Of a DNA stretch of 64,000 nucleotides, positions 34,915 through 44,198 are shown piece by piece; the stretch's first letter is position 1, and every line of letters starts with the position of its first letter. The stretch is from a bacterium (GTDB taxonomy: Bacteria; UBA8248), in NCBI GenBank assembly GCA_965202625.1, contig CBDBBI010000010.1:1019050-1083049 (forward strand), written 5' to 3'. Both the position numbers and the translations under genes were made by a program. The notes below the pieces were generated by a model. The model saw only the letters and a program-made list of their open reading frames with translations, did no database searches and had not been told where the DNA came from.

Positions 34915-35050
34915 ATAGTCGAAGTCGCTCTCTACTGAGCCGGATAGCCCGGCCCGGAGAGCGTCTCAGCGATCCTCCCCGTCGGCGATGCACGACGTCG
35001 TTCCCCGCAAAATTTTGACCGAGTGCGTCTGAACGGATGGGCGGCGAACA
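34915..35050. repeat. degenerate direct-repeat copy of the 3' end of the prpE-like acyl-CoA synthetase gene (left boundary of the inserted element)
   Basis: It aligns base by base with 42285-42470, beginning atagtcgaagtc... and including ccggatagccc, cgtcggcgatgc and ttccccg.aaaattttg.ccgag. The alignment contains an internal ~50-bp deletion and scattered mismatches. Confidence 0.7.
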
Positions 35051-35306
35051 ACAAGCTGAGGGCGGGACGTGCGCGAACCGGTAATAGGTTTTAGGTTTGT
35101 CCGAAGCCGCAACGCGCGGGCGATGAACACCCTCCGCCAGATGCAGTCTCTTGCTCGTGGATTTCAAGGCAAACGACTGACCTGGCAAGACCTCACGAAG
35201 TGAATCATCCCCATATCTGGGACGCTTGACTCCAAAAATCTACCTCATATCGAGTGAAAAAAGTCGAGAGTTCCGCTGGAGGACCGGAGCTATCGTTGGA
35301 AAGGGC

Positions 35307-36056
35307 TCATGCAGACCGCCTCGTCTGCTCTGCTGAAATATCCATAATACCCTGAGATTTCAATACCTCATCTCTGAGGACTACGCCTACAACGTCCAAG
35401 ACCTGCTTTAACGCAATGCCATTATTATAGGCGGACATTTGCATTGCTTCCCGTGGTATTTTTTCCGTTAAATCATCAAGGAGATTTTCTTGGGCATACG
35501 CAAAGCACATCTCCTGTATTTCGTAGGCATTCTTGTCTTTACCGCTTATTTGTTCCTTTAATGCTTCTGCATATCCCGAAATCCATTCGTTGATTTGTAT
35601 TTCTTCAGCAACCCTTTCCCCCAGTTCGCTGAGCCTGCGCGGGCTATCGGATTCCGTTGTTTCGGGAGGGGGCAATCGCGAAAAAATAGATTTTATGTCT
35701 GCTCGTATTTCCTTTACCTCATTTTTGATTTCGCTTCGTATTGCATTTGTTTCATTTTTGATTTCCGCTCGTATTGCATTTGTTTCATTTCTGATTTCGC
35801 TTCGTATTGCATTTGTTTCATTTCTGATTTCATCTCGTATTTCTTTTGTTTCATTGCTGATTTCATCTCGTATTTCTTTTATCTGATCTCGAATTTCTCC
35901 CATAAATGTCGATATGCTCTCTCCCTTTTCGTTTACTTTTGCAATCCATGTTGCAGCGCGTATTGCAGCCCATATTGCAAGAGCAAAGAGGACGACAATA
36001 ATGAGTAATATATTTCCTTTGAAGGCTTCAAGGAGAAATACGTTGATGGAGCTCAT
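35307..36056 (-). CDS. membrane-anchored protein containing about six tandem 11-aa repeats (NETNAIRSEIR-type coiled-coil)
   Basis: The 249-aa protein has an N-terminal TM helix, then the repeat block EIRDEIRNETNAIRSEIRNETNAIRAEIKNETNAIRSEIKNEVKEIRADIK. The gene's GC content is about 45%, against about 62% for the genome. Confidence 0.6.
   Translation of the reverse strand: MSSINVFLLEAFKGNILLIIVVLFALAIWAAIRAATWIAKVNEKGESISTFMGEIRDQIKEIRDEISNETKEIRDEIRNETNAIRSEIRNETNAIRAEIKNETNAIRSEIKNEVKEIRADIKSIFSRLPPPETTESDSPRRLSELGERVAEEIQINEWISGYAEALKEQISGKDKNAYEIQEMCFAYAQENLLDDLTEKIPREAMQMSAYNNGIALKQVLDVVGVVLRDEVLKSQGIMDISAEQTRRSA
35694..35895. repeat. 33-bp tandem repeat (about 5.5 copies) inside the gene above
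   Basis: Successive copies read gatttcgcttcgtattgcatttgtttcattttt, gatttccgctcgtattgcatttgtttcatttct, gatttcgcttcgtattgcatttgtttcatttct, gatttcatctcgtatttcttttgtttcattgct and further degenerating units. Confidence 0.75.
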
Positions 36057-37341: not shown

Positions 37342-38103
37342 TTAAGAGGTGAGGAGAGATTTCTCCTGAATGGTTCTTGATGGGTTGATTCCAAACGCTT
37401 GAGGCATTTCAGTCCACGTTCTGCCATCCAGCGTTCGACCCGTCTTTTTCTTGAATACGCCGCCCCATTGCTTGAAGAAAAAAGGCGTGCCGCTGCCCAC
37501 GCAATTATCCCGAATCTCTCGCGCCCAGTCCGGCTCCATGGGCCTTGCGCCCGGACCGCTTTCGCCGCCGACGATGACCCAGTCAATGCCGTCCAGATCC
37601 AGACTCGGCAAGGGTTCAAGCAGCGGCTCAAGAGAGAGAAACTTCGTTCGGGCACCCGTTTGCCGGAGCAGGCGCGCCCGGTTCAGAAAATCCGCAGACT
37701 CAATGCTCGTCCCCAGCCAGATGTTCGGCGTCCAGCGAAGCCGCCGGCTCCACCGGACAGCGCGTCCCGGCCGCTTCGTGAGCACCTGAAACGTGTGCTG
37801 GGTCGCGCGGTTCATCACCCCGAACACGGCCTCAAGGAAGTCCAGCGGCACCGCTCGGTGAAACAGATCGCTCATAGAGTTCACGAAAACAAGGCGCGGC
37901 TTGCGCCACTTCAGAGGCTCTTCCAGAATGGATGGGTGGGTTCTGAGCGAAAAGCCGTCCGCGTACTTGCGGGTCCCCATCCCCTGGAGCCGCCTCGACA
38001 TCCGCGCAGCGTAACAATGCTTGCACCCGGGGCTGATCTTCGTGCAACCGGTAGTCGGGTTCCAGGTGATTTCCGTCCACTCTATGCCGGAAACTTTAGG
38101 CAT
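37342..38103 (-). CDS. phage Gp37/Gp68-family protein (DUF5131)
   Basis: Trimmed to MPKVSGIEWTEITWNPTTGCTKISPGCKHCYAARM, the family's three-Cys N-terminus. The upstream gene's stop lies 2 nt before this ATG. Confidence 0.8.
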   Translation of the reverse strand: MPKVSGIEWTEITWNPTTGCTKISPGCKHCYAARMSRRLQGMGTRKYADGFSLRTHPSILEEPLKWRKPRLVFVNSMSDLFHRAVPLDFLEAVFGVMNRATQHTFQVLTKRPGRAVRWSRRLRWTPNIWLGTSIESADFLNRARLLRQTGARTKFLSLEPLLEPLPSLDLDGIDWVIVGGESGPGARPMEPDWAREIRDNCVGSGTPFFFKQWGGVFKKKTGRTLDGRTWTEMPQAFGINPSRTIQEKSLLTS

Positions 38104-38105
38104 GG

Positions 38106-38846
38106 CTAAATGTGACCCAGAATGTGGCCTGCAATCCGAGTAGCTGGAGCAATTCCCCTGGGGTGGCCTACGCAAAACATAAATTCAAATAGCGCCGAAT
38201 TCTTGGAGTTTTTAAGAGTTCGGGATTTTTCGAGAAACCTGTCTCTAAATAAGCACTTAAGATTTCTTTTGTATATGGAGGTCAGGCCCCCGACGCCAGA
38301 GTCTCTCTCATAATGAAGACCTCCAAATAGATCAGTGTTTTCCTGATACAGGCCTCTCCATCTCTCATCACCGAATACTTTTGTGAGTCGCTCAGCCCAC
38401 TTTGGCTCAACTTCCTCGGGCATTCTTGATTTCGGCAACATCCTAGCAACAGCGGACGTAGGGAAGAGAATCCAGGTATCGAGCACCTTAAGGTTGGCTA
38501 TCTTTTCAATAGTCGCCCATGCAACTTCCGTGGCGAAGCGCCGCTTCGCCGCCGCGTCCGCCGCGCAAAACCCGCTGTCGTGGGCCTCCGAGGTTGCCAC
38601 AATGTGTTCAATGTCCGTCTGGTGCCTGCTGGAAAACGTCCGCCCGGTGTATGGCCCATACGTCCGGCCCCCAAGACCGGCAACGATGCGGGCCTCAAGA
38701 GATTGCGAATACGGATAGTCGCGCCGCTTGTCGTAGGGTGCGCACCGGTGCTCGGGTGCGACCACGAGGCCGCGCCAGGTGTCAGCGGCCCACATGGTTG
38801 CGGGAGTGAGCGCAACGAGAGCGAAAACGAATATACACAAAATCAC
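38106..38846 (-). CDS. secreted DUF1524/HNH-like nuclease-family protein with an uncharacterised C-terminal half
   Basis: The ORF has a GTG start and a signal peptide. The N-terminal half (...HRCAPYDKRRDYPYS...GPYTGRTFSSRHQTDIEHIVATSEAHDSGF) matches the C..PYD / PYTG / DI(D/E)H(V/I)V pattern of DUF1524. It is translationally coupled to the Gp37/Gp68 gene. Confidence 0.45.
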   Translation of the reverse strand: MILCIFVFALVALTPATMWAADTWRGLVVAPEHRCAPYDKRRDYPYSQSLEARIVAGLGGRTYGPYTGRTFSSRHQTDIEHIVATSEAHDSGFCAADAAAKRRFATEVAWATIEKIANLKVLDTWILFPTSAVARMLPKSRMPEEVEPKWAERLTKVFGDERWRGLYQENTDLFGGLHYERDSGVGGLTSIYKRNLKCLFRDRFLEKSRTLKNSKNSALFEFMFCVGHPRGIAPATRIAGHILGHI

Positions 38847-38876
38847 CCTTCATCCACCCCCTTGGTGCCGACCGCC

Positions 38877-39197
38877 TTAACGGTTTCCCTCTTTGCATCG
38901 AACGCGGTAATAGATTCGGCTGCCCGCAGCGCCGAGGTTATATTCCCGAATCACTTTCCGCTCGAAAATCTCGTATCCACCGGGGCACAAGTCGTTGTCA
39001 GTGAGGTAGAGCTTGAGCCTCGATAGTCTGTTGGATTCAGCGGAGGAGCTGTCATGCGGAGTGAGCGGGCCAGCTACCGCCTCGTACTGAAACGTCCCGT
39101 CGGACAATGGCCTGAATCTGGTATCGAATATAGTGTCGTGCGCAGAACAACCCATTAATGCCAGGAACGCAAAAACGGCCAGGCCTTTCGCAAACAT
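38877..39197 (-). CDS. small lipoprotein, copy 1 of a tandemly duplicated pair
   Basis: The start MFAKGLAVFAFLALMGCSAHD is preceded by GGAGGAGG. The protein is about 70% identical to copy 2 and has conserved Cys (DLCPGGYE, RVRCKEGNR). Confidence 0.55.
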   Translation of the reverse strand: MFAKGLAVFAFLALMGCSAHDTIFDTRFRPLSDGTFQYEAVAGPLTPHDSSSAESNRLSRLKLYLTDNDLCPGGYEIFERKVIREYNLGAAGSRIYYRVRCKEGNR

Positions 39198-39255
39198 CGG
39201 CTCCTCCTCCCTCAAAAAGTCCGCGCCATCCAGCACACCTCTCCCAAAACCTCCG

Positions 39256-39335
39256 CACCGCGCGGAGGCGGGATGGGCTCCCACGCCGGATGATCGCTCT
39301 CCAGAATCCACCGCCCCTCCACCCACACCGCGCGC
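39256..39335 (-). pseudogene. orphan fragment of the 3' end of the S24 repressor gene (copy a)
   Basis: The 80 bp are near-identical to 39756-39835 inside the intact repressor gene and would encode ...WVEGRWILESDHPAWEPIPPPR. The fragment is part of a ~485-bp tandem duplication unit. Confidence 0.6.
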
Positions 39336-39363
39336 GGCCACAGCGAACAGGCTGCAGACCGCC

Positions 39364-39690
39364 TTAACGGTTTCCCTCTTTGCATCGAACGCGGTAATGG
39401 ATTCTGTGGGCCAAAGCGTCGGAGCCATATTCCCGAATCGCTATCCGCTCGAAAACCTCGTATCCACCGGGGCACAAGTCGTTGTCAGTGAGGTAGAGCT
39501 TGAGCCTCAATAGTCTGTTGGCTTCAGCGGAGGCACTCTTCGGCGGATAGAACGGGCCAGCTACCGCCTCGTACTCAAACGTCCCGTCGGACAATGGCTT
39601 GAATCTGTGATCGTATCCAGTGATGCGCGCAGTAGTACAACCCATTAATGCCAGGAACGCAAAAACGGCCAGGCCTTTCGCAAACATCAT
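39364..39690 (-). CDS. small lipoprotein, copy 2 of a tandemly duplicated pair
   Basis: The start MMFAKGLAVFAFLALMGCTTARI is preceded by GGAGGAGG. The gene lies directly 3' of the repressor gene on the same strand. Confidence 0.55.
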   Translation of the reverse strand: MMFAKGLAVFAFLALMGCTTARITGYDHRFKPLSDGTFEYEAVAGPFYPPKSASAEANRLLRLKLYLTDNDLCPGGYEVFERIAIREYGSDALAHRIHYRVRCKEGNR

Positions 39691-39701
39691 CTCCTCCTCC
39701 C

Positions 39702-40478
39702 TCAAAAAGTCCGCGCCATCCAGCACACCTCTCCCAACACCTCCGCCCCGCGCGGAGGCGGGATGGGCTCCCACGCCGGATGATCGCTCTCCAGAATCCA
39801 CCGCCCGTCCACCCACACCGCGCGCTTGACCAGCAAGCCATCCTCGCCGCGCACCACGAATATCCGTCCGCTGTGCAGGTGCTTTTTTTTCATGTCAATG
39901 AGAATGGAGCAACCCGCCGGCAGCGTCGGCTCCATGGATTCGCCCGCCACGCGGATGATGCGGCACTGGGCGGCCTCCAGCCCTTGCTCCCTCAGCCACT
40001 CCGCGCGAAACGCCAGACGTCCCGCCACCGTCTCGCTGTCCGCCTCCGCACCGCCTCCCGCCGCCGCGTCCACCTCCACGATTTCCACGTGACGGAAATG
40101 GAAAGCGTCCGTATTTCCGGCGGCCTCCGATTCTGCCGCGTCGCGCAATTTGTCCAGGGTACCGGCCGCATCGCGCAAGCGGGAGAGCTCCGCATCGAAA
40201 GCCTCCTCCAGCATTCGCTTCGCCGAGCCCTCCTGGAGTGCCGCCGCCCCTGATGCATCGGGCACCCCTGATGCACCGGGTGGGGCGACGAGAGGAAATT
40301 CAATGCCCAGAGCTTCGCAAATCTGGGCGGCGCGCCCGATAGAAGGTTGCTGTCCGTCCAGGATTCCCTGGAAACTTCGCACAGGAATCCCCGCACGCAT
40401 TGCCGCCGCGCGTACGGACTCACCATTCCTTGCGAGGTGATCACGAACATCTTTCACAAACCGTTCCCTTACTCCCAT
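39702..40478 (-). CDS. XRE-family HTH repressor with C-terminal S24 (LexA/cI-type) peptidase domain
   Basis: Trimmed to MGVRERFVKDVRDHLARNGESVRAAAMRAGIPVRSFQGIL, which contains the HTH. The C-terminus ...RVAGESMEPTLPAGCSILID...LLVKRAVWVDGRWILESDHPAWEPI is the S24 Ser/Lys fold. Confidence 0.8.
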   Translation of the reverse strand: MGVRERFVKDVRDHLARNGESVRAAAMRAGIPVRSFQGILDGQQPSIGRAAQICEALGIEFPLVAPPGASGVPDASGAAALQEGSAKRMLEEAFDAELSRLRDAAGTLDKLRDAAESEAAGNTDAFHFRHVEIVEVDAAAGGGAEADSETVAGRLAFRAEWLREQGLEAAQCRIIRVAGESMEPTLPAGCSILIDMKKKHLHSGRIFVVRGEDGLLVKRAVWVDGRWILESDHPAWEPIPPPRGAEVLGEVCWMARTF

Positions 40479-40575
40479 GTGGCAATGTATAGCATATTGT
40501 GCCCCCAAATTGCCATTGGCATTATAATGCAAATATGGGCTTGACATCTTGGCGTAATAAAGCCATATTGGCCTT
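40479..40575. promoter_or_regulatory. divergent intergenic control region between the cI-like repressor and the cro-like gene, with candidate operator palindromes
   Basis: Palindromes tgccattggca (40511-40521) and gccatattggc (40562-40572) are present. Plus-strand hexamers TTGACA (40543-40548) and TATAAT (40523-40528) are also present. The region is AT-richer than its flanks. Confidence 0.35.
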
Positions 40576-40824
40576 ATGACGCCAAACCAGATCATCCACC
40601 TTATAGACGTCATGGCCGAGGCGACCGCCCGAAGCCCGCACACGCTCGCCCGCTACGCTGCCGGCTCCGGAGATTTCTACGCGCGCCTGAAGGTTGGACA
40701 CGACATCACGACCCGCCGCGCCGCGCGCGTCGTTCAATGGTTCTCCGATCAATGGCCCTCCGACCTGGAGTGGCCGTCGGACGTTCCCCGCCCTGTGCCG
40801 AAAGCGAAGGAGAGTGCCGCGTGA
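40576..40824 (+). CDS. small hypothetical protein divergent from the repressor (cro-like position)
   Basis: The ORF is 82 aa. The true start may be the internal ATG at 40612. Its stop overlaps the GTG of the next ORF (GTGA). Confidence 0.35.
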   Translation: MTPNQIIHLIDVMAEATARSPHTLARYAAGSGDFYARLKVGHDITTRRAARVVQWFSDQWPSDLEWPSDVPRPVPKAKESAA

Positions 40825-41579
40825 GCGGGTGCGATCTGCGGGTGATAACGGAGGAATCCCCCCCCGTTTCGCCGGCGAAACAGGCACACGAAGCGCCGCG
40901 GCCCCTCTTTCATGAAGGGCTTGGGCGGGATCGCTGGGCGGAGATCGGGCGCGATCTTTCCCACTGGGCGGAGAACACGCAATGGGAAATGGGAGAATGG
41001 GCTCTGTTTGGGGAGGCGTCTTTTGGCGAGAGGACGCTGCGGGAGGTGGCGTCCGGTCTGAAAATCAGCGCGGGCAAACTGTCCAACTGCCGACTGGTCG
41101 CCAAGAATTTCCCCGCGTTTCGCCGGCGAAACGCCTTGAGTTTTTCTCACCATCTCGAAGTGGCGCGCCTGCCGCAAGCGGAGGGCGACGAAATTCTCGC
41201 CCGCGCCGAGGCGGATGGATGGACGCGAGAGCAGATTCGGAAGGAAGCGCGCGAAGCGCGGGCGGCGGTGCTGGCGTGCCTGGTGCGCGAGAACGAGGCG
41301 CTTCGCGCGGAGAATGCGCGGCTCAAAACCACGCCGGCGGCGGCGAAGGATGCGGCGCGCGACCTGGAGAGACGCGCGAAGGCCGCCGCCCGAAAGGTGA
41401 GCGCGGCGTTTGCGGACCTCGCGCGGGTACTGGGCGAGGCGGGTGCATCGGCGGAAATCACAGGTTTGCACGGCAACGCGCGCGCGGCACTCGACGCGCG
41501 CCTGAAACGCATCGTGTGCTCGGCTGGAAGGGATGCGGCCGGCGTGCAGATGCGCTTCACTTTCGGGGCGGGCGAATGA
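40821..41579 (+). CDS. hypothetical protein with coiled-coil C-terminal half
   Basis: The ORF is 253 aa from the GTG at 40821 and has typical high-GC codon usage. Its stop overlaps the next ATG (ATGA). The longer track ORFs 40737 and 40982 are N-terminally over-extended. Confidence 0.4.
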   Translation: MSGCDLRVITEESPPVSPAKQAHEAPRPLFHEGLGRDRWAEIGRDLSHWAENTQWEMGEWALFGEASFGERTLREVASGLKISAGKLSNCRLVAKNFPAFRRRNALSFSHHLEVARLPQAEGDEILARAEADGWTREQIRKEAREARAAVLACLVRENEALRAENARLKTTPAAAKDAARDLERRAKAAARKVSAAFADLARVLGEAGASAEITGLHGNARAALDARLKRIVCSAGRDAAGVQMRFTFGAGE

Positions 41580-42235
41580 ATCCCCACGCCCGTGAAACCG
41601 CCCAGCAACCCTCTTTCATCGCCCTGGAAACGCCCGAAAAACTCCCTTGCAACGACCTGGAAACCGCCTGGAACGCCGCCACGGACGCCCAGAAAGAGCG
41701 CGCCGTCAAGCGGCTGCGTGCGGTCGAGCGTTCCGAGGCTTTGGCGGCGGAGGGGATAGTGCGCGCGGAGGCGGACGGAATAGCGGCACTTGAATGCGGC
41801 GCGTCCAAATCCGCCGTCGCCACCTGGCGGCGTCGCGCACGAGGTGCGGGGCGGGGAGATAGACTGCGCACGCTTCTTGACGCACCGGGGCGCGGACGGC
41901 CGCGTGCAGAATGGACGGGCACGGCGGCGGAGACGCTCTGGACGCTGTGGCGCACGGACTGGCTCCGAGAGGAAGCACCGGATGCGGCGGCGGCACATCG
42001 GCGGGTGGAGGCGGTCGCCCAGGCGCGGGGCTGGGAATGTCCGCCCCTCCAGGCGTTCACCCGCAGGGTGCGGCGCGAGGTTTCCCGCCGCGAAGTCGTA
42101 CGCGCGCGCAAGGGTGCCCTCGCCGCCATGAACACCTCGCCCCACCAGACGCGAAGCGTGGAGGCGGGATGGGCTCCCACGCCGGATGATCGCTCTCCAG
42201 AATCCACCGCCCCTCCACCCACACCGCGCGCTTGA
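41576..42235 (+). CDS. hypothetical protein whose C-terminus is read through an antisense copy of the repressor 3' end
   Basis: The ORF is 220 aa from the ATG at 41576 and shares a frame with the tail of track ORF 40982..42235. The last ~25 codons lie inside repeat copy c, so the gene may be 3'-truncated or fused. Confidence 0.35.
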   Translation: MNPHARETAQQPSFIALETPEKLPCNDLETAWNAATDAQKERAVKRLRAVERSEALAAEGIVRAEADGIAALECGASKSAVATWRRRARGAGRGDRLRTLLDAPGRGRPRAEWTGTAAETLWTLWRTDWLREEAPDAAAAHRRVEAVAQARGWECPPLQAFTRRVRREVSRREVVRARKGALAAMNTSPHQTRSVEAGWAPTPDDRSPESTAPPPTPRA

Positions 42236-42247
42236 CCAGCAAGCCAT
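42158..42247. repeat. third copy (c) of the S24-repressor 3'-end repeat, abutting the right boundary of the inserted element
   Basis: The sequence gaggcgggatgggctcccacgccggatgatcgctctccagaatccaccgcccctccacccacaccgcgcgcttgaccagcaagccatc matches 39756-39842. Confidence 0.65.
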
Positions 42248-42302
42248 CTCGGTAGAGGCACACGTCGGCTTTTGTTCTTGTTCAATAGTCGAAGTCCCTC
42301 CT

Positions 42303-44198
42303 CTACTTCCCCGGATAGCCCAGGCCGGCGAGGGTCTCGGCGATCTCGGGCAGGATGGCCGGGTCGTCAATGGTGGCAGGTGCCTTGTATTCCTCGCCGT
42401 CGGCGATGCGCGACATCGTTCCCCGTAAAATTTTGCCCGAGCGCGTCTTGGGCAGGCGCTTCACCACTGCCGCCTGACGGAATGCGGCCACGGCGCCGAT
42501 CTGGCGGCGCACGAGCTGCACCACCTCGCCGACGACCTCCGCATCCTCCCTCTCAACGCCCGACGTCAAGACCAGAAAACCGAGGGGAAGCTGGCCCTTG
42601 AGCTGATCCTTCACTCCGATGACGGCACACTCCGCCACGTCGGGATGCGAGGTCAACACCTCCTCCATCGCGCCCGTGGAGAGCCTGTGGCCCGCCACGT
42701 TGATGATGTCGTCCGTCCTCGACATCACATAGACGTAGCCCTCCTCGTCCACGTAGCCGGCATCGCCCGTTTTGTAGAAGCCCGGATATTCGCTCAGATA
42801 GGAATCGACAAAACGCGCGTCCGCGTTCCAGAGGGTGGGGAGACAACCGGGCGGCAGGGGCAGTTTGACGCACAGCGCGCCCATCTCGCCCGCACCCAGT
42901 GCGCGGCACTCGCTGTCGAGAACCCGAAAATCGTAGCCGGGAACGGGCTTCGTGGGGGAGCCGTATTTGACGGGCAGATGCTCGATTCCGATGGAGTTCG
43001 CCAGCATCGGCCAGCCGCTCTCCGTCTGCCAATAGTGGTCGATGACGGGAACCCCCAGCTTATCCTCCGCCCACTGCACCGTGTCCGGGTCGGATCGCTC
43101 CCCCGCCAGAAAAAGGGTGCGGAAACAGCCGAGGTCGTAATTTCGCATGAGTTCAGCGTCCGGATCATCGCGCTTGATAGCGCGAAACGCCGTGGGCGCC
43201 GTGAACAAAACCTTCACCCCATGCTCGGAGATGACGCGCCAGAAAGCGCCTGCGTCGGGCGTGCCCACGGGCTTGCCCTCAAACAGGATGGTCGCGCAGC
43301 CGTGGAGCAGCGGCGCATACACGATGTAGGAATGCCCCACCACCCAGCCTACGTCGGACGCCGCCCAGAACACCTCGCCCGGCGCCACGCCATACACGTT
43401 TCGCATCGACCACTTGAGCGCCACCATGTGGCCGCCGTTGTCTCGAACCACCCCCTTGGGCTGTCCCGTCGTGCCCGAGGTGTAGAGGATATAAAGGGGG
43501 TCCGTGGCGGCGACGGGAACACAGGCCGCAGGCATCGCGCCCCGCAGCGCATCGCCCCATTCGACGTCGCGGCCCTCGATGAGCTCCGCCTCCGCCTGGG
43601 CGCGCTGCAGGATGACGCACTTCTCCGGCTTCACGCTCGAGAGGTTGATCGCCTCATCGAGCAGGGGCTTGTAGGCGATGACGCCCGAGGGTTCCACTCC
43701 GCACGAGGCGGATATCATGAGTTTCGGCTTTGCGTCCTCGATCCGCGCCGCCAGCTCGTTCGGTGCGAACCCGCCGAAGACGACCGAGTGCACCGCGCCG
43801 ATGCGCGCGCAGGCGAGCATGGAGATCGCCGCCTCGGGTACCATCGGCATGTAGATGATGACGCAGTCGCCCTTCTCCACCCCCAGGGATTTGAGCGCGC
43901 CCGCGAAATGCGCCACCTCGCGCAGCAACTCCCCATAGGTGAACTTTCGGGCAGGCGCACCCGTGATGGGGGTGTCGTATATCAGGGCGAGTTGATCCGC
44001 GCGTCCCGCCTCGACGTGACGATCCAGTGCGTTGTAGCAGGTGTTGACCTCGCCTCCTGCGAACCAGCGATAGAAAGGAGGGCGGGAATCATCCAGCACC
44101 CTCTCCCATCTCTTGTGCCAGTGCACGTCCTCCGCCGCCTCCGCCCAGAACGCCTCCGCGTCCAAGAGAGAGCGGGCGTGAACCTCTGCGTAGCCCAT
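42303..44198 (-). CDS. prpE: propionate--CoA ligase / acetyl-CoA synthetase family (AMP-forming)
   Basis: The 631-aa protein has an N-terminus like PrpE (EAFWAEAAEDVHWHKRWERVLDDSRPPFYRWFAGGEVNTCYNALDRHV), the AMP-binding motif YTSGTTGQPKGV and the C-terminus RLPKTRSGKILR. Confidence 0.85.
   Translation of the reverse strand: MGYAEVHARSLLDAEAFWAEAAEDVHWHKRWERVLDDSRPPFYRWFAGGEVNTCYNALDRHVEAGRADQLALIYDTPITGAPARKFTYGELLREVAHFAGALKSLGVEKGDCVIIYMPMVPEAAISMLACARIGAVHSVVFGGFAPNELAARIEDAKPKLMISASCGVEPSGVIAYKPLLDEAINLSSVKPEKCVILQRAQAEAELIEGRDVEWGDALRGAMPAACVPVAATDPLYILYTSGTTGQPKGVVRDNGGHMVALKWSMRNVYGVAPGEVFWAASDVGWVVGHSYIVYAPLLHGCATILFEGKPVGTPDAGAFWRVISEHGVKVLFTAPTAFRAIKRDDPDAELMRNYDLGCFRTLFLAGERSDPDTVQWAEDKLGVPVIDHYWQTESGWPMLANSIGIEHLPVKYGSPTKPVPGYDFRVLDSECRALGAGEMGALCVKLPLPPGCLPTLWNADARFVDSYLSEYPGFYKTGDAGYVDEEGYVYVMSRTDDIINVAGHRLSTGAMEEVLTSHPDVAECAVIGVKDQLKGQLPLGFLVLTSGVEREDAEVVGEVVQLVRRQIGAVAAFRQAAVVKRLPKTRSGKILRGTMSRIADGEEYKAPATIDDPAILPEIAETLAGLGYPGK

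Follow-up and report, generated by a model that had tools for sequence, protein, structure and literature searches.

A repressor-gene fragment at the end of a truncated Mu-type transposase gene as a probable deletion scar in a decayed Mu-like prophage

A third copy of the 3'-end segment of a phage repressor gene, found at the end of a truncated Mu-type transposase gene in the 64-kb stretch of DNA analysed here (the window), is probably (at a probability of about 0.7) a non-functional scar left where most of a Mu-like prophage was lost by illegitimate recombination, that is, a product of ordinary prophage decay. The locus is a previously undescribed Mu-like element, now decayed. An insertion or deletion scar was one of two options offered for this repeat by the initial annotation, and it fits the data: the transposase homology ends exactly at the repeat, and the rest of the phage is missing.

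What is left of the element measures 3.4 kb and consists of two paralogous lipoprotein genes, a repressor gene, a ner-like gene, orf251 and the first 195 codons of a transposase gene (related loci are denoted by L numbers):

38877..39197, minus strand: lipo1, a small lipoprotein gene (MFAKGLAVFAFLALMGC... lipobox) and paralogue of lipo2 (ORF list, alignment).
39364..39690, minus strand: lipo2, a lipoprotein gene whose start lies 12 nt past the repressor stop and is preceded by the Shine-Dalgarno sequence GGAGGAGG (sequence and ORFs).
39702..40478, minus strand: intact S24 (LexA-like) phage repressor gene, 258 aa (Pfam Peptidase_S24, 2.3e-14; phrog_4 transcriptional repressor; 170 homologues).
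40541..40569, plus strand: candidate sigma-70-like promoter of the early (ner-like) operon, a consensus match only (consensus scan, 10/12 matches).
40576..40824, plus strand: gene in the ner/cro position, 82 aa (phrog_7669, 1e-25), conserved in L002, L084, L085 and L087.
40824..41579, plus strand: orf251, conserved between the ner-like gene and the transposase gene in related Mu-like prophages (synteny with L084/L085).
41576..42161, plus strand: MuA', the first 195 codons of a Mu-type transposase, comprising the DNA-binding part with the DDE core absent (Pfam PF09039; homology to relatives).

The layout of this early region, in which the repressor gene is divergent from the ner-like gene and the transposase gene follows, was also found in L085, L084 and L002. 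Compared with Mu, the D3112/B3-type Pseudomonas phages, SfMu and BcepMu, the order is again the same, with the repressor facing the left end, a divergent ner-like gene and a MuA-type transposase. The repressor of the remnant is S24/LexA-like and in this respect presumably unlike Mu c; its sequence was supported by L083, a 1216-nt contig from an independent sample (Logan SRR23871865) that is 99% identical and equivalent to window positions 39678-40893. The orf251 product gave a weak match to an LmbU-like regulator (NCBIfam NF038070, 3.4e-27, below the family cut-off), and lipo1 had no match in Pfam, PHROG or NCBIfam. The two lipoproteins have an identical signal peptide and C-terminus, and the alignment of their genes is a mosaic in which 50-nt blocks with 37-39 identical positions alternate with blocks with 48-50, suggesting that diversifying selection or patchwise recombination may have acted on them.

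Unlike intact Mu-like phages, however, the remnant retains just 195 of about 600 transposase codons and has no DDE core, MuB or late genes, and it is also without recognisable TG...CA ends or a 5-bp target duplication. No transposase core, MuB or late gene was found anywhere in the window, and a tblastx search of the window with six related prophage loci revealed nothing outside 39185-42248 except host genes. By comparison, L085 is an intact Mu-like prophage in which the same early order is followed by MuB (AAA_22), GemA, Mu gp27 and a terminase. GenBank contained no phage DNA similar to 38860-42300; single-protein scans of IMG/VR returned no relative of MuA' and one distant locus (26% identity) for the repressor, and exact look-ups of the repressor, MuA', Acs and the DUF799 protein yielded no record. 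Positions that could mark phage ends are 42284, where the sequence ends ...TTCA, and 38866 and 39353, which start with TG; matching inverted repeats and a 5-bp target duplication were not found at these putative TG/CA ends, and the phage ends were probably deleted. The TG at 38866 or 39353 was rejected as a phage left end and taken as coincidence, with a lipoprotein stop 11 nt away and no space for transposase-binding sites. Two readings of the segment 42249-42284 were rejected as well, a right end of Mu and a terminal inverted repeat paired with 35043-35058: locally, the alignment was no better than that of 6-14% of random windows. The segment showed no similarity to the putative left-end region of L085 either. 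Partial deletion of Mu-like prophages has been reported (PMC4378225).

The repeat finder located the repressor 3'-end segment of about 90 bp as three direct copies in the window, at 39260-39352, 39750-39842 and 42156-42248, with start-to-start distances of 490 and 2406 nt. Together with the sequences that adjoin them, the copies can be described as follows (eq., equivalent position in the resident repressor gene):

39144..39335, minus strand: copy 1, comprising the terminal 124 nt of a repressor gene (eq. 39702-39825) together with the stop, the Shine-Dalgarno sequence and the start of a lipoprotein gene (repeat finder; tblastn with repressor aa 216-258).
39336..39352, no strand: 17-nt filler at the joint of a tandem duplication (alignment).
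39750-39842, minus strand: copy 2, inside the intact repressor gene, aa 213-242.
42160..42248, minus strand: copy 3, an internal repressor fragment (codons 213-242, DGLLVKRAVWVEGRWILESDHPAWEPIPPP) without either gene end (repeats, alignments, tblastn).
42249..42284, no strand: 36 nt between copy 3 and the right boundary repeat of the surrounding island, no match found.

A 52-mer (GGAGGCGGG...CCACCGCC) is identical in all three copies and has exactly three matches in the window, with 0 expected by chance (0.00 matches in 100 shuffled sequences). Taking copy 2 as the reference, copy 1 is 88% identical over 93 nt and copy 3 is 98% identical. The true repressor match of copy 1 stops at 39335, inside the span given by the repeat finder, and holds only the last 41 codons of the repressor; the whole copy 1 region is 97% identical to 39634-39825. 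This copy is part of a 490-nt tandem unit (38866-39352 / 39353-39842) whose two members show 87% identity in the small-gene coding part and 97% in the repressor-tail part, and lipo1 and lipo2 each begin about 12 nt past a repressor stop with a strong Shine-Dalgarno sequence, the "repressor end" in front of lipo1 being copy 1. A source was sought for the 17-nt filler at the joint, and none turned up in the window, the 245 fetched loci or IMG/VR. A dispersed element of the REP or MITE type was rejected, all three copies in the window lying at the repressor locus and the segment having 0 exact matches in IMG/VR.

Copy 3 differs from copy 1 in its extent. The base T42159, scored as a mismatch by the repeat finder, is a transposase-gene base, L002 having ...agcgtgg at the same place directly before the junction; the repressor-derived part of copy 3 is therefore 42160/42162-42248, or 87-89 nt. 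The initial annotation had placed a third copy of the segment near 42158-42247, about 35 bp from the right edge of the element, and had read it in the opposite sense as the C-terminus of ORF 41576..42235. All of this was borne out: the copy ends 36 nt before 42285, and that ORF takes its last 24 codons and its stop from it (EAGWAPTPDDRSPESTAPPPTPRA, then the stop). It contains neither the end of the repressor gene with its stop and Shine-Dalgarno sequence nor the 5' body, and its two break points lie 87-89 nt apart. Over the 72-nt overlap (42160-42231 and 39264-39335) copies 3 and 1 show no difference, and copy 3 reaches 17 nt beyond the end of copy 1 (to eq. 39842), where it matches copy 2. 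One base distinguishes it from copy 2 (C vs G at eq. 39807; in the repressor frame, a GAG codon for Glu as against a GAC codon for Asp), so that a Glu codon is found in copies 1 and 3 and an Asp codon in copy 2. A diversity-generating retroelement with a template/variable pair was rejected as a source of the repeat, with no reverse transcriptase among the island ORFs and this sole internal G/C difference not being adenine-specific.

The transposase side of copy 3 could be compared directly with relatives. In ORF 41576..42235, Pfam identified HTH_Tnp_Mu_2 (PF09039, the Mu transposase I-gamma DNA-binding subdomain, as in Mu-like phages) at aa 91-194, and the ORF matched the transposase profile phrog_310 at positions 78-269 of 696 only; the PF02914 core was absent from the Pfam result, unlike in P0001, L084 and L085. 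P0001 is the single close relative of MuA' (65% identity), and the full-length transposases among the relatives measure 589-607 aa (L084, 589 aa; L085, 607 aa). The alignment of MuA' with the P0001, L084 and L085 transposases ends at ...PHQTRSV (aa 195, nt 42161), exactly where copy 3 begins. The proposal that this ORF was truncated or fused was thus correct: it is a Mu transposase N-terminus whose homology is lost at aa 195, precisely at the repeat. At the DNA level, relative L002 reads ...cagacgcgaagcgtgg/ccggcc and the window reads ...cagacgcgaagcgtgg/aggcggg (slash, junction), and in a three-way comparison the relative MuA gene has ...GCGTGG/CCGGCC, the window ...GCGTGG/AGGCGGG and the repressor gene ...GCGCGG/AGGCGGG. 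These comparisons indicate that the transposase gene breaks off at nt 42161, where repressor sequence follows without any spacer. Microhomology at this junction amounts to 2-6 nt (GG alone, or GCGYGG with one mismatch, 5/6 nt), a low level that is typical of illegitimate joining. Microhomology was assessed at the transposase side, the right side of copy 3 being occupied by 36 nt without a matched partner; the repressor homology stops at 42248, and 42249-42284 had no match in the window, the 245 fetched loci or IMG/VR.

The stop of the MuA homology at 42161, the internal piece of repressor gene that follows and the missing phage together place copy 3 between two illegitimate junctions, where it was trapped. 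Homology is lost abruptly on both sides, and the putative donor, which has the same orientation, is found 2406 nt upstream. Filler DNA or templated insertion at illegitimate junctions, and tandem duplication followed by deletion, are known from break repair and template switching. Like templated filler, copy 3 is a patch of 87-89 nt between two break points, with its source 2.4 kb away in the same orientation.

An obvious concern with such joints is an error of metagenome assembly, in which the repeat would have given rise to a chimera or a collapse. Every one of the closest relatives is a metagenome-assembled genome, the proteins of the window are mostly missing from the gene index, and a mixed population with two repressor-tail alleles exists (L083), all of which are compatible with an artefact. 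Against this, the MuA'/copy 3 junction (k-mer GAAGCGTGGAGGCGGGATGG), the junction of copy 3 with the 36 nt (k-mer AGCCATCTCGGTAGAGG) and that of copy 1 with the 17-nt filler have only 0-6 nt in common. Assemblers join at shared k-mers, and the junction sequences must therefore exist in the reads; a wrong path through an 89-nt repeat could at most swap flanks, not create them. In addition, the context of copy 2, alone among the copies, was confirmed at 99% identity by the independent sample. We thus regard an assembly artefact as highly improbable.

The scar can be derived from an ancestral Mu-like prophage at this site that would have carried the accessory lipoprotein gene(s), the S24 repressor gene, the ner-like gene, orf251, MuA, MuB and the late genes. 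From codon 196 of the transposase gene to the right end of the phage, at least 30 kb by comparison with relatives would have been lost by illegitimate recombination at the level of microhomology. Two routes may be envisaged. In route (a), a single complex deletion would have occurred during break repair or a replication template switch, in which the repressor gene, 2.4 kb upstream, served as the template for 87-89 nt of filler inserted in the same orientation. In route (b), a tandem duplication of eq. 39760-42161 (2.4 kb) would have come first, and a deletion would then have removed what lay between eq. 39843 of the second unit and the vicinity of the right end. The formation of copy 3 would fall in a period when the resident repressor gene still had a tail of the copy 1 type (Glu); the present Asp-variant tail, together with lipo2, would later have arrived from a related phage through two crossovers, one homologous and the other illegitimate. 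The Glu base common to copies 1 and 3 suggests that copy 3 may predate the present repressor tail, and the identity of copies 1 and 3 against copy 2 at this single base needs an extra assumption about the order of events if copy 3 is a scar. Which route was taken, and in what order the events fell, we infer rather than observe, and both routes amount to illegitimate recombination.

The same base would be explained if copy 3 were the residue of a second, related Mu-like prophage, either a superinfecting one inserted in or near the transposase gene or a tandem lysogen, that was deleted almost entirely from both sides, given that its Glu-codon variant is common to copy 1 and not to the resident repressor. 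The lipo1 and lipo2 units, at 87% identity in the coding part and 97% in the repressor tail, also look as expected for two related alleles combined, and L085, L166 and L087 have foreign repressor tails near their own repressor genes, with protein-level similarity extending past the DNA-level similarity. However, this history would require at least three events (one insertion and two deletions) that left just 89 nt, and 42161/42162 shows neither phage-end sequence nor a 5-bp target duplication. Moreover, copy 3 keeps 99-100% identity to the resident copies up to an abrupt end, without the graded divergence seen in the foreign tails of the relatives. A second prophage is consequently unlikely as the origin of copy 3.

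The related prophages, which the initial annotation had proposed as a comparison, were surveyed at 165 loci encoding relatives of the repressor. None of the 165 had a copy on the transposase side of the repressor gene, and four (L084, L085, L166 and L087) had an extra, same-strand repressor C-terminal fragment downstream of the repressor gene and directly before an accessory gene:

L084 11985-12284, same strand as the repressor: repressor-tail fragment.
L085 11607-11710, same strand as the repressor: repressor-tail fragment.
L166 2748-2873, same strand as the repressor: repressor-tail fragment.
L087 7145-7324, same strand as the repressor: repressor-tail fragment.

The accessory genes behind these fragments encode secreted, lipoprotein or ankyrin proteins, and the fragments differ in length, the shortest holding the last 34 codons and the longest the last 65. 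The two genes flanking the L084 fragment code for paralogous ankyrin-repeat proteins, mirroring lipo2 and lipo1. Since four relatives have the same architecture, copy 1 with lipo1 belongs to a recurrent pattern. It resembles morons, as in lambdoid phages and in the plasticity regions of Pseudomonas Mu-like phages (PMC4378225), in that small secreted-protein or lipoprotein genes lie downstream of the repressor gene on the same strand and vary among relatives. Unlike in those cases, the added gene is preceded here and in the four relatives by a partial copy of the repressor tail, a detail not found in PMC4378225. Copy 3 itself is not of this moron or accessory-gene type.

Truncated early-region remnants were present among the relatives too (L084 and L002), and L084 appears to end after MuB. 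L002 (5846-10491) is a rearranged Mu-like prophage that carries the closest transposase relative; an IS (DDE_Tnp_1) lies right after the repressor gene, with inverted late genes next to it, and the called transposase product has only 371 aa compared with 589-607 aa in L084 and L085. This locus is another decaying member of the family. The contig L083 combines a repressor body of the copy 2 type with a tail and lipoprotein start of the copy 1 type (4/4 diagnostic positions), as expected from recombination between copies 1 and 2 or from a strain with a single unit; judged by this sequence, these repeats do appear to recombine in related strains, which supports the order of events proposed above.

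The recurrence of repressor tails raises the question of whether the segment is a specific recombination or cassette-boundary site for adding or exchanging accessory genes, of which copy 3 would be one product. The break points in the window do cluster in the last ~140 nt of the repressor gene, the four relatives have a tail fragment directly upstream of an accessory gene, and the flanking accessory genes of L084 are paralogous exactly as in the window. Nevertheless, no recombinase, integrase or resolvase was found among the ORFs of the remnant and the island by Pfam, PHROG or NCBIfam. An att-type site would have the same core and crossover position across the copies and relatives, but the fragments start at varying codons and the junctions have filler or 2-6 nt of microhomology with no common core. 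Copy 3 lies on the other side of the repressor gene, lacks the tail end that cassette-type fragments keep, and had no counterpart in its position at any of the surveyed loci. In a survey of the variable regions of Pseudomonas Mu-like phages, the flanks of these regions likewise had no common recombinase target (PMC4378225). A dedicated site of this kind is therefore very unlikely, and the site recognised by an absent recombinase that the initial annotation had offered as its other option found no support.

A looser relation between the repressor tail and gene addition may be considered. Copy 1 ends at eq. 39825, copy 3 has its ends at eq. 39760 and 39842, and three break points within 90 nt of a multi-kb region are more clustered than under a uniform random model, which hints at a hotspot. 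The last ~40 repressor codons and the coupled start of the next gene could then be a preferred anchor for adding or duplicating accessory genes expressed in lysogeny, without a dedicated recombinase, and copy 3 would be a mis-targeted product; we consider this quite unlikely. The clustering can also be explained by survival bias, long direct repeats being lost quickly. A second ordinary explanation is that the tail is the most conserved DNA of these genes and hence both detectable and an anchor for homologous exchange.

Copy 3 might instead be regulatory, with read-through of the early operon yielding an RNA of 89 nt that would be antisense to the repressor-lipoprotein mRNA at its 3' end. The geometry would allow this, copy 3 lying on the plus strand at the end of the early operon and being complementary to the minus-strand repressor transcript with one mismatch, and there is a promoter-like site upstream of the ner-like gene. 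Yet copy 3 is conserved in no relative, no terminator or processed-RNA signature was found at it, its local fold is just mildly more stable than that of shuffled sequences (z = -2.2), and the remnant has no lytic functions left to regulate. Such a role is extremely improbable.

The stub lies within a 7.4-kb island that has the 3' end of the neighbouring acs gene at both of its borders, as direct repeats that have diverged (~82%):

34915..35031, minus strand: left boundary repeat, a decayed acs 3' pseudo-copy (coding for ...IAETLSGPGYPAQ and a stop) with a 47-nt internal deletion (blastn-short, alignments to 42285-42449).
42285..42449, minus strand: right boundary repeat, made up of the last ~147 nt of acs and the 18 nt that follow the gene (blastn-short, alignments).
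42303-44198, minus strand: acs, functional gene (Pfam AMP-binding / ACAS_N).

In the two closest genomes (L003/L004; 85% Acs identity), acs is followed by an EamA-type transporter gene and an HD-domain gene, with no island; the nearest named relatives of the host are Nitrospinota MAGs with 76% Acs identity, and the host belongs to an uncultured lineage. On integration, elements such as phage 21 and e14 (at icd) duplicate the 3' end of the protein-coding gene that they target. Like them, the island is flanked by a direct repeat of a gene's 3' end, one functional and one a displaced pseudo-copy; unlike them, it has no integrase (none among the island ORFs in Pfam, PHROG and NCBIfam scans), and its repeats are only ~82% identical, one with an internal deletion. 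Mu-type phages are not known to integrate by duplicating the 3' end of a target gene, and the acs repeat therefore belongs to the history of the island, not to that of copy 3. Other junction scars in the island are the 17-nt filler, a half-TcmP fusion and the decayed acs 3' pseudo-copy.

The half-TcmP fusion, a further rearrangement scar of the island, is a 246-aa ORF at 38106-38846 (minus strand). Its match to the three-Cys-motif partner protein TcmP is confined to the C-terminal half (profile positions 139-258 of 263), and the N-terminus joined to this half is unrelated and starts in a signal-like manner. A complete gene of the DUF5131 (phage Gp37/Gp68-type) family at 37342-38175 (minus strand) overlaps this ORF. 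A gene of low GC content (45%) lies at 35307-36056 (minus strand); its product is a coiled-coil protein anchored in the membrane, with tandem repeats of 11 aa (33 nt; IRxEIxNETxx), and the gene looks like a recent foreign acquisition.

The direct repeats bracketing about 2.4 kb, as described in the initial annotation for copies 2 and 3, are real (spacing 2406 nt). A repeat of 89 nt that contains a single mismatch is of sufficient length for RecA-dependent recombination, so copies 2 and 3 could still delete the intervening 2.4 kb. This is a passive property, and the bracketing is better read as a by-product that homologous recombination can still delete than as an excision system.

Overall, the third copy requires no new mechanism and is of little weight in itself. 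The locus documents the decay of a transposable prophage to a stub of repressor and accessory genes in an uncultured, Nitrospinota-related lineage. The retained module, consisting of the repressor, two lipoproteins and the DNA-binding stub of the transposase, could still give immunity to, or exclusion of, related phages. The fused ORF 41576-42235 keeps the transposase DNA-binding domain with a 24-aa foreign tail, and speculatively it could in principle, along with the intact repressor, act against incoming relatives of the phage. What is mildly new is solely the recurrent fragment of the repressor tail before accessory genes in this family of Mu-like phages with S24 repressors; its presence in five related prophages offers a small clue to how genes are added in Mu-like phages.
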